Assembly: GCF_965641715.1 (NCBI RefSeq)
Contig: NZ_OZ282453.1
Strand: one strand, 5' to 3'
DNA length: 64,000 bases
Source: Escherichia coli
Lineage (GTDB): Bacteria > Pseudomonadota > Gammaproteobacteria > Enterobacterales > Enterobacteriaceae
In this document: positions 7,343 through 9,814 of the stretch, one piece after another
Position numbering within the stretch: the first letter of the stretch is position 1
Layout of the letters: each line of letters begins with the position of its first letter
Notes under the pieces: generated by a model
The model's database searches: none
Seen by the model: only the letters and a program-made list of their open reading frames with translations
What the model was told of the DNA's origin: nothing
Translations under genes and position numbers: made by a program

Positions 7343-9814
7343 ATGAGTAAAGTCTTTATTTGCGCCGCTATTCCTGACGAACTGGCAACAAGGGAAGAAG
7401 GCGCTGTGGCTGTAGCCACAGCCATTGAAGCTGGCGACGAACGCCGTGCTCGAGCAAAATTTCACTGGCAGTTCCTGGAACATTATCCGGCTGCTCAGGA
7501 CTGCGCTTATAAATTTATTGTCTGCGAGGATAAACCTGGCATACCCCGCCATGCCCTCGATTCATGGGATGCTGAATATATGCAGGAAAACCGCTGGGAT
7601 GAGGAGTCTGCTTCTTTTGTCCCGGTTGAGACTGAATCCGATCCGATGAACGTCACTTTTGACAAGCTGGCCCCTGAAGTACAGAACGCTGTCATGGTTA
7701 AGTTCGACACATGTGAAAACATCACCGTTGATATGGTTATTAGCGCACAGGAATTGTTGCAGGAAGACATGGCAACATTCGACGGACATATCGTTGAAGC
7801 GTTGATGAAAATGCCAGAAGTTAACGCCATGTATCCGGAGCTTAAGTTGCACGCCATTGGGTGGGTTAAGCATAAATGTATTCCTGGTGCTAAATGGCCC
7901 GAAATTCAGGCAGAGATGCGCATCTGGAAAAAACGTCGCGAAGGTGAACGCAAGGAAACCGGAAAATACACGTCTGTTGTTGATCTCGCCCGCGCCAGAG
8001 CCAATCAACAGAACACTGAAAATTCAACAGGAAAAATCAGCCCGGTCATTGCTGCCACTCATCGCGAATACAAGCAGACATGGAAAACACTGGATGACGA
8101 ACTGGCCTACGCTCTCTGGCCTGGTGATGTGGATGCCGGAAACATTGACGGCAGCATCCATCGCTGGGCAAAAAAAGAAGTTATCGACAACGACCGCGAA
8201 GACTGGAAGCGTATCTCGGCATCAATGCGCAAACAGCCTGATGCCCTTCGCTACGACCGCCAGACTATTTTTGGCCTTGTCCGTGAACGTCCGATCGACA
8301 TTCACAAAGACCCTGTGGCACTGAACAAATACATTACTGAATACCTGACTACAAAGGGCGTGTTTGAAGATGAAGGAAGAAATCAGAGCGCAACTGATAC
8401 TCTCTCGTCGCCAGTACCAGAAACTGATGCAGTGGAAACGGCAATTCCGGACAACGAAAAAACCGAATGCAAAGTGGAAGTCGAACCATCTGTAGAGCGT
8501 GAAGGGCCGTTCTACTTCCTCTTCACCGACAAGGATAGCGAAAAATACGGTCGCGCAAACAAACTTTCTGGTCTGGATAAGGCACTGGCTGCAGGGGCTA
8601 CTGAAATCACGAAAGAAGAATATTTCGCCCGCAAAAACGGTACATACTCAGGTTCACAACAAAATACTGGTGCATCTGACACGACCGCACAACCAGGGCC
8701 GGTAAAAGTTACCGCTGACGAAGTAAACAAAATTATGCAGGCAGCCAATATCAGCCAGCCTGACGCCGATGAACTGCTTGCAGTATCACGTGGTGAATTT
8801 GTTGCAGGGATTAGCGATCCGAATGATCCGAAATGGGTGAAGGGGATTGAAACCCGCGATTCTGTGAACCAGAACCAGCAAGAAACGGAACAGAACGACC
8901 AGAAAGCGGAACAAAACAGCCCAAATACGCCACAAAACGAGCCAGAAACGAAACTACCTGAACCAGTAGTGCAACAGGAAGTGGAAAAAGTCTGCACCGC
9001 CTGCGGTCAGACCGGCGGCGGCAACTGCCCTGATTGTGGTGCGGTGATGGGCGACGCAACATACCAAGAAACATTCGATGAAGAGTATCAGGTTGAAGTT
9101 CAGGAAGATGATCCGGAGGAAATGGAAGGCGCTGAACATCCACACAAGGAGAACACTGGCGGCAATCAGCATCACAATAGCGATAATGAGACTGGCGAGA
9201 CGGCAGATCACTCAATTAAGGTGAACGGTCATCACGAAATCACATCCACCAGCAGGACGTGTGACCATCTAATGATCGACCTTGAAACCATGGGAAAAAA
9301 TCCTGATGCCCCGATCATCTCAATAGGTGCAATATTTTTCGATCCGCAAACCGGAGATATGGGACCGGAATTTAGTAAGACTATCGATCTGGAAACTGCT
9401 GGCGGAGTCATTGATCGGGACACCATTAAATGGTGGCTTAAGCAATCACGCGAAGCGCAATCTGCCATTATGACCGATGAAATCCCGTTAGATGATGCAC
9501 TGTTACAATTGCGGGAATTTATCGACGAAAACTCCGGTGAATTTTTTGTTCAGGTTTGGGGAAATGGAGCCAACTTCGACAACACGATTTTGCGCCGTTC
9601 ATACGAACGGCAGGGGATCCCCTGCCCGTGGCGTTACTACAACGATCGCGATGTACGCACAATCGTTGAGCTGGGGAAAGCCATAGACTTCGATGCCAGA
9701 ACGGCTATTCCATTCGAAGGTGAGCGCCATAATGCACTTGATGACGCTCGTTACCAGGCAAAATACGTTTCAGCTATCTGGCAAAAACTGATCCCGAGTC
9801 AGGCTGATTTTTAA
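7343..9814 (+). CDS. RecE-like prophage exonuclease (823 aa) with C-terminal DEDDh (DnaQ-like) 3'-5' exonuclease domain and central zinc ribbon
   Basis: C-terminal motifs MIDLETMG, GANFDNTIL and HNALDDA match DEDD exonuclease motifs I-III; the central acidic linker plus CTACGQTGGGNCPDCG segment resembles the same region of Rac RecE as remembered; sits where lambdoid phages carry exo. Confidence 0.7.
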   Translation: MSKVFICAAIPDELATREEGAVAVATAIEAGDERRARAKFHWQFLEHYPAAQDCAYKFIVCEDKPGIPRHALDSWDAEYMQENRWDEESASFVPVETESDPMNVTFDKLAPEVQNAVMVKFDTCENITVDMVISAQELLQEDMATFDGHIVEALMKMPEVNAMYPELKLHAIGWVKHKCIPGAKWPEIQAEMRIWKKRREGERKETGKYTSVVDLARARANQQNTENSTGKISPVIAATHREYKQTWKTLDDELAYALWPGDVDAGNIDGSIHRWAKKEVIDNDREDWKRISASMRKQPDALRYDRQTIFGLVRERPIDIHKDPVALNKYITEYLTTKGVFEDEGRNQSATDTLSSPVPETDAVETAIPDNEKTECKVEVEPSVEREGPFYFLFTDKDSEKYGRANKLSGLDKALAAGATEITKEEYFARKNGTYSGSQQNTGASDTTAQPGPVKVTADEVNKIMQAANISQPDADELLAVSRGEFVAGISDPNDPKWVKGIETRDSVNQNQQETEQNDQKAEQNSPNTPQNEPETKLPEPVVQQEVEKVCTACGQTGGGNCPDCGAVMGDATYQETFDEEYQVEVQEDDPEEMEGAEHPHKENTGGNQHHNSDNETGETADHSIKVNGHHEITSTSRTCDHLMIDLETMGKNPDAPIISIGAIFFDPQTGDMGPEFSKTIDLETAGGVIDRDTIKWWLKQSREAQSAIMTDEIPLDDALLQLREFIDENSGEFFVQVWGNGANFDNTILRRSYERQGIPCPWRYYNDRDVRTIVELGKAIDFDARTAIPFEGERHNALDDARYQAKYVSAIWQKLIPSQADF

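Follow-up and report, generated by a model that had tools for sequence, protein, structure and literature searches.

What does a phage gene do that looks like recE in its middle and lacks both the RecE nuclease and a RecT partner? The question is raised by a lambdoid prophage whose right end lies within a 64,000-nucleotide stretch of Escherichia coli DNA (contig NZ_OZ282453.1; the whole stretch is called the window here). Just before its excisionase and integrase genes this prophage carries an open reading frame (ORF) for a protein of 823 amino acids (aa), and such genes are often labelled 'exodeoxyribonuclease VIII' in spite of the missing nuclease and the missing partner. In this study I compare the protein, its relatives and their neighbouring genes. 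It seems reasonably probable to me that during lytic growth the product works as a 3'-5' exonuclease on DNA ends, delivered by a RecE-type scaffold and independent of an annealase, and not as half of a recombinase pair.

Results

Architecture of the protein

The gene and its modules are laid out in the window as follows, the C-terminal domain being called the cargo of the scaffold that precedes it.

7343..9814, + strand: exonuclease ORF, complete, ATG start, 823 aa plus stop
7343..8050, + strand: YdfE_N module, aa 1-236; aa 1-100 form a small alpha/beta domain and aa 105-225 a helical one, without RecE counterpart
8051..8377, + strand: YdfE_C or 'mid1' helical module, aa 237-345, common to Rac RecE (about aa 278-345)
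8378..8692, + strand: polar/acidic linker, aa 346-450, with a conserved GPFYF mini-domain from aa 388
8693..9262, + strand: 'mid2' region, aa 451-640, nearly identical to Rac RecE 458-591
8807..8839, + strand: conserved 11-residue motif GISDPNDPKWV, aa 489-499, present in scaffolds of every cargo type
8993..9037, + strand: zinc ribbon CTACGQTGGGNCPDC, aa 551-565, CxxC-x7-CxxC, followed by the acidic tail
9263..9811, + strand: DEDDh 3'-5' exonuclease domain (DnaQ-like, DexA/Rv2179c family), aa 641-823

A preliminary description of this locus had read DEDD-family motifs, and no RecE/lambda-Exo nuclease, in the C-terminus, and this proved correct. Pfam PF16473 (Rv2179c-like 3'-5' exonuclease) matches aa 642-813 with E=1.5e-67 and 227 bits (cutoff 27), over positions 2-177 of the 177 in the profile, while neither BLASTP nor phmmer aligns any part of the protein to RecE 596-866; the RecE C-terminal PD-(D/E)XK nuclease domain is taken here as about aa 564/606-866. 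The motif DLETMG supplies D646 and E648, FDNTIL supplies D746, and HNALDDA supplies H796 and D801; these five catalytic residues align with D7, E9, D119, H186 and D191 of T4 DexA and are invariant in the alignment of domain relatives. DexA (8KEL/8KEN) is the sole solved structure that is clearly matched by sequence. The domain comparison with RecE, RNase T and DnaQ, which the description had proposed as a check, gave only marginal matches to the latter two (E about 0.02-0.07) and showed no canonical RecE nuclease. Judged by its sequence, the C-terminus is an intact DEDDh exonuclease that is unrelated to the RecE/lambda-Exo fold.

The acidic and zinc-ribbon segment had been likened to Rac RecE, and here too the likeness holds. 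In a BLASTP comparison with K-12 Rac RecE, only aa 262-625 align, with RecE 278-591 (39% identity over 370 columns, E=8e-61), and aa 478-625, a part that spans GISDPNDPKWV, the zinc ribbon and the acidic stretch, are nearly identical in both proteins; the RecE counterpart of the ribbon is CNACGQTGGDNCPDC. The RecE-like label needs one refinement, as the N-terminal 236 aa are not RecE-like and form a separate YdfE_N module. Pfam finds no match in the 823-aa protein to PF06630 (Exonuc_VIII), the N-terminal module whose place YdfE_N takes, and the NCBIfam RecE equivalog PRK09709 reaches 275 bits against a cutoff of 1269, with aa 237-625 matching positions 260-602 of the 877 in the model only. PHROG 2082 ('exonuclease') covers the protein end to end (823/823). 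YdfE_N (PF27430), YdfE_C (PF27432) and the Rv2179c-like domain are all found on the cluster representative P0001, which is 97% identical to the window protein; the two YdfE assignments are the precomputed Pfam domains of P0001, and not a direct profile search of the window protein.

As the RecE homology stops at aa 625 (RecE 591) and the DEDDh domain begins at about aa 642, the junction falls at the RecE domain boundary. Stand-alone phage exonucleases of 190-200 aa are 54-60% identical to the DEDDh domain and have the same domain limits. The simplest history is that a stand-alone DEDDh gene replaced the nuclease cargo at that boundary.

Two elements of the scaffold deserve separate mention. 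GISDPNDPKWV (aa 469-479 in Rac RecE) is almost invariant inside otherwise fast-evolving linkers; it also occurs with C-termini other than the three cargo types described below, and may be a short linear motif that binds a host or phage partner. A Dam-like DNA methyltransferase (L028:5187-6167, - strand), encoded beside a gene similar to the E. coli exonuclease EcD discussed below, ends with the same zinc-ribbon mini-module as RecE and the 823-aa protein, and the ribbon therefore seems to be a mobile module that is added to phage DNA enzymes.

Search for an annealase

The two genes that follow the exonuclease gene are:

9867..10145, + strand: excisionase (xis), PHROG 629, the next gene 3' of the exonuclease ORF
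10114..11232, + strand: integrase, at the prophage end adjoining potC

The claim that no annealase lies before xis stands, as only 52 nucleotides (nt) separate the exonuclease stop codon (9814) from xis, and they hold no ORF. The search that had been suggested for the rest of the prophage was likewise negative. With three RecT proteins, the RecE nuclease, gp157 and one Rad52-like module as tblastn queries, no match was found in any frame of the 64-kb window, nor in the complete, annotated potB/potC prophage of strain UMNK88, which is 99.7% identical to positions 4858-12000 of the window (all E>0.07 in both). Ten other prophage ORFs (583 to 6312) were scanned against PHROG; the results were a replication initiator, a Ren-like protein and unknowns, with no annealase among them. 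In the annotation of the UMNK88 prophage RusA is present, and no RecT, Bet or Erf is annotated; for Bet, Erf and Sak4 the absence is one from the annotations of PHROG and the Prokaryotic Genome Annotation Pipeline (PGAP), no direct search having been made. By these searches and annotations, no annealase is present next to the gene, at any other place in the window or in the complete UMNK88 prophage.

Relatives and their next genes

A full HMMER search with aa 1-640 yielded only 237 clusters at 50% identity, and those of the hits that are at least 380 aa long were dissected into modules by phmmer. Two N-terminal modules occur among the relatives, YdfE_N or RecE_N (Pfam Exonuc_VIII), followed by the shared middle modules mid1 (YdfE_C) and mid2 and by a variable C-terminal cargo. 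The cargo is a PD-(D/E)XK exonuclease, a fused Rad52-fold domain or a DEDDh exonuclease. All four combinations of N-terminal module and nuclease cargo (DEDDh or PD-(D/E)XK) are found; in P0128, for instance, the N-terminus of Rac RecE (E=1e-177) is joined to the DEDDh domain of the 823-aa protein (E=3e-129). None of the small elements GPFYF, GISDPNDPKWV and zinc ribbon is obligatory, and each is seen with differing cargos. The Rad52 fold of the third cargo was assigned by fold comparison alone; a profile hidden Markov model of this cargo gave no Rad52 match among PDB sequences, and Pfam gave none.

In the dozen or so neighbourhoods that were examined in all, the next gene follows the cargo:

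PD-(D/E)XK cargo, then RecT: Rac, P0131 and P0193 (3 of 4 loci)
PD-(D/E)XK cargo, then a 271-aa protein: P0260 (the fourth of the 4 loci)
Rad52-like cargo, then Sipho_Gp157 (gp157): P0129 and P0239 (two loci), 3 of 3 loci
DEDDh cargo, then excisionase and/or integrase genes: the window, P0128, P0122, P0141 (two loci), P0252 and P0269, 7 of 7 loci

The seven DEDDh loci represent six protein clusters, most of which share less than 50% identity with one another across the scaffold, and in none of the seven was an annealase found next to the gene or annotated there. The lack of an adjacent annealase is the rule for the DEDDh variant and not a quirk of the locus in the window.

Two of the relatives are of interest in themselves. 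The 271-aa protein beside P0260 (L013:7565-8380) belongs to PHROG 3657, a family of unknown function, and is not similar to RecT by BLAST; it may be an annealase that is not yet recognised as such. P0205 (703 aa) joins Rac RecE, as far as the first half of its zinc ribbon, in frame to the C-terminal two thirds of RecT, and is apparently a deletion allele of recET.

Prevalence, integrity and selection

By megablast, 65% of complete E. coli genomes (3532 of 5426) have a near-full-length copy, one that covers 80% or more of the gene, with up to 10 matches to the gene per genome, annotated 'exonuclease' or '3'-5' exonuclease'. A single protein cluster at 90% identity holds 23,183 member sequences, and among the carriers are viable phages and enterohaemorrhagic E. 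coli O157:H7 (EDL933). In phage Tritos the layout is likewise dicF-dicB-ydfD-exo-xis-int, the exonuclease protein is 92.9% identical, and no annealase is annotated in the 18-46 kb part of the phage. Tritos is a plaque isolate from E. coli LF82, and imaging showed a siphovirus (PMC9928086). The exonuclease is not listed among the Tritos genes above background in the transcriptome of the LF82 lysogen (PMC9928086), which fits repressor control. The record vB_EcoS-689R5 was considered as further evidence from a free phage and rejected, being a partial genome that contains host genes.

Five alleles (window 7343-9811, L001, L046, L047 and L048), which share 85.7-97.8% nucleotide identity, all have exactly 823 codons and no insertions or deletions. 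The ratio of nonsynonymous to synonymous substitution rates (dN/dS) is 0.08-0.3 in YdfE_N and in the DEDDh domain, about 0.1 in YdfE_C (from the four comparisons that involve L046, as the others have too few substitutions there), 0.14-0.35 in the linker and 0.3-0.6 in mid2. These values reject a pseudogene, and the gene is intact, functional and under purifying selection.

Within one pair of alleles, synonymous divergence (dS) differs strongly from segment to segment of the gene. Between the window and L048, for example, it is 0.00 in mid1 and 0.42 in mid2, a sign that prophage copies have recombined within the gene.

Some copies are broken. K-12 ydfE is a remnant of the gene in which nt 1-767 are kept, 99.5% identical, and cut by IS2, so that nothing after about aa 255 is left; the Pfam families YdfE_N and YdfE_C were built on this remnant. 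BL21 retains nt 1-495 alone, annotated 'exonuclease VIII', and the UMNK88 copy (L003:3871-6341) is frameshifted. With their copies broken, the common laboratory strains K-12 and BL21 are without an intact gene.

Prophage neighbourhood

The prophage is of the dicB type (Qin/Rac-like) and is inserted beside the host gene potC. Besides the genes given above, its early region and border comprise:

4090..4728, + strand: LexA/CI-family repressor, at the start of the leftward early region
between the repressor and DicF in feature order: homologues of ydfA/B/C
6647..6698, + strand: DicF small RNA (Rfam RF00039, 76.7 bits), in the early-left operon, upstream of dicB
6873-7061, + strand: dicB, upstream of the exonuclease gene
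7058-7249, + strand: ydfD, directly 5' of the exonuclease gene
12292: potC, host gene bordering the prophage

At the left edge of the window a sok antitoxin RNA (1-101, - strand) is clipped by the window start, which indicates a hok/sok module there. The interval between integrase and potC holds a DUF2335 protein (11336-11803, - strand), with a weak PADLOC match to PD-T4-6 (E=0.0025), and a small hypothetical protein (11781-12023, - strand); both may be attachment-site cargo.

Discussion

The gene is probably not working as part of a classic phage recombinase pair. I propose that a non-catalytic scaffold, made up of YdfE_N, YdfE_C, GPFYF, GISDPNDPKWV, the zinc ribbon and the acidic tail, carries a C-terminal cargo that would be a Mg2+-dependent 3'-5' exonuclease. 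Its main substrate would be the 3' ends of DNA and not RNA, given that this scaffold otherwise carries DNA-recombination modules and that both characterised homologues, DexA and EcD, are DNases. The scaffold may tether the nuclease to DNA ends or to a host partner. Expression would come from the repressor-controlled early operon after induction, with action in lytic growth and not in the lysogen. There the enzyme would trim or degrade 3' ends without a partner, and any recombination would lean on host functions; candidate roles are to trim ends for host recombination, to destroy 3' tails or to degrade foreign DNA.

Some points weigh against this proposal. Polarity and substrate are predicted from homology; the Pfam family takes its name from an exoribonuclease of mycobacteria, and '3'-5' exoribonuclease' is a frequent PGAP name for the protein. 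An annealase could act in trans from another prophage elsewhere in the genome, such as Rac recT, and the sample of neighbourhoods is only a dozen or so.

A wider reading, which I offer tentatively, is that the RecE/YdfE scaffold could be a general targeting platform on which effectors of DNA ends can be exchanged (an exonuclease of 5'-3' or of 3'-5' polarity, or a Rad52-type annealase), the DEDDh form being an undescribed annealase-independent, 3'-end-directed pathway in lambdoid phages. The target would be DNA ends or a host machine, reached via GISDPNDPKWV, the zinc ribbon and the acidic tail, and the destruction of 3' tails might modulate host RecA/RecBCD, or replication or packaging intermediates might be processed.

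Alternatively, though I regard this as doubtful, the protein may be an anti-phage exclusion nuclease of the HREX kind, which degrades the hydroxymethylcytosine DNA of incoming T-even phages and thereby shields the lysogen. The exonuclease is encoded in the same operon as DicB and DicF, and DicB is reported to protect against some phages. EcD, the DexA homologue of E. coli, digests T4 DNA and protects E. coli from T4 (PMC12153337), and an EcD-like protein of 189 aa is 37% identical to the DEDDh domain over its full length (E=2e-36). This protein was recovered with the forward primer of PMC12153337; the printed EcD reverse primer has one extra A compared with the recovered gene, and the identification rests on the forward primer, on A78, which is present as the paper states, and on the C-terminus PFLNI. 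However, W152 of DexA, which is proposed to take part in 5-hydroxymethylcytosine (5hmC) recognition, aligns with Y766, and D169 aligns with A780, although the alignment is weak and unreliable there; D90, a tetramer residue whose loss is the criterion of the paper, is retained as D718. The repressor-controlled early operon and the absence of the gene from the LF82(Tritos) lysogen transcripts (PMC9928086) also speak against this reading, as do the other cargos of the scaffold, which are recombination modules, and a PADLOC-DB v2 scan of the exonuclease protein that gave 0 families at E<=0.01. As an aside, the EcD-like gene (L028:6401-6991, - strand), 'bacterial' according to PMC12153337, sits in an integrase-bearing, prophage-like element.

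Somewhat less probable still is an exoribonuclease that would trim or degrade the 3' ends of host or phage transcripts on induction, or would serve in the processing or turnover of the DicF small RNA. DEDDh enzymes often accept both RNA and DNA, and DicF lies in the same operon, about 650 nt upstream. The names point this way too, both that of PGAP and that of the best Pfam family, which is called after the Mycobacterium tuberculosis exoribonuclease Rv2179c. However, the only solved structure that is detectable by sequence beyond the marginal RNase T and DnaQ is that of a DNA exonuclease, T4 DexA, and the characterised E. coli homologue EcD was assayed on DNA (PMC12153337). Moreover, the domain stands in the place of a dsDNA exonuclease, and the remaining cargos of the scaffold are DNA exonucleases or annealases; a role on RNA fits this context less well than a role on DNA.

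It is improbable that the protein is a conventional RecE-like recombination exonuclease with an annealase, whether this is an unrecognised one nearby or a RecT or Bet supplied in trans by another prophage. The homology of the scaffold to RecE would agree with such a partnership. So would the up to 10 matches to the gene in E. coli genomes, which usually hold several lambdoid prophages, and the PD-(D/E)XK relative P0260, whose neighbour of an unknown family suggests that unknown annealases may exist. However, the 3'-5' polarity predicted by homology would yield 5' overhangs, which are not a substrate of SynExo-type annealases (lambda Red, RecET), and this polarity argues against a Red/RecET-like mechanism; nor did the gap before xis, the window, the complete related prophage or the seven DEDDh loci examined reveal an annealase. 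A decaying, non-functional chimera of prophage mosaicism, suggested by the broken copies of K-12, BL21 and UMNK88, is very improbable. Intact copies predominate, the folded domains show a dN/dS of about 0.1, no insertion or deletion separates the alleles even where nucleotide identity falls to 85.7%, the catalytic residues are conserved, and the plaque-forming phage Tritos carries the gene.

The family as such is already in the databases (PHROG 2082, Pfam YdfE_N/YdfE_C and the PGAP names) and module shuffling is normal in phages, so the architecture alone is not a discovery. In the literature searched, on Rv2179c together with prophage, on ydfE and on the RecE N-terminal part or DEDD, I found no functional study of the protein, and three things appear undescribed there: the three-cargo pattern with its correlated neighbour genes, the annealase-less DEDDh form, and the Rad52-fold fusions. 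If the idea of a scaffold with swappable cargos is true, phages offer a natural experiment on the role of the roughly 600-residue N-terminal part of RecE, which matters for linear-linear recombineering, and a comparison of the three cargo classes would make its function directly testable. It would also suggest that many lambdoid phages use a 3'-5' end-processing enzyme in place of a Red/RecET-type recombinase, and annotations would have to be corrected, including those of the Rad52-fold fusions now called 'exonuclease'.

Comparison with known systems

With two-component recombinases (lambda Exo/Bet, RecE/RecT; SynExo) the gene has its genomic position in common, and with RecE the scaffold; it differs from them in having no adjacent annealase, and in a nuclease fold and a predicted polarity that would be wrong for making 3' tails. 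Rac RecE (exodeoxyribonuclease VIII) is the closest of these, with the same early-left operon position just before xis/int and the same central scaffold, GISDPNDPKWV, zinc ribbon and acidic tail. In contrast to it, the 823-aa protein has no PD-(D/E)XK nuclease, has YdfE_N for Exonuc_VIII, has no recT downstream, and would degrade DNA with the opposite polarity. The N-terminal part of RecE, to which the shared region belongs, is still called of unknown function (PMC11611040).

YdfE of the K-12 Qin prophage is the same gene in the same operon context (ydfABC-dicF-dicB-ydfD), but it is cut by IS2 and without the exonuclease. The stand-alone DEDDh 'exonuclease' genes of temperate coliphages (mEp460, PhiR55_1 and the N15-like YDC107_1) have the same limits, LMIDLETMG ... 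AIWQKLIP, and differ in not being fused to a RecE/YdfE scaffold.

T4 DexA (exonuclease A; PDB 8KEL/8KEN) and EcD belong to the same DEDDh family and share the catalytic D/E/D/H/D, the domain being 27% identical to DexA and 37% to the EcD-like protein over its whole length. The residues proposed for 5hmC recognition are not conserved (W152 is Y, and D169 is A in a weak alignment). DexA and EcD are stand-alone enzymes of 189-227 aa, whereas the 823-aa protein bears its domain as the C-terminal cargo of a scaffold of 640 aa.

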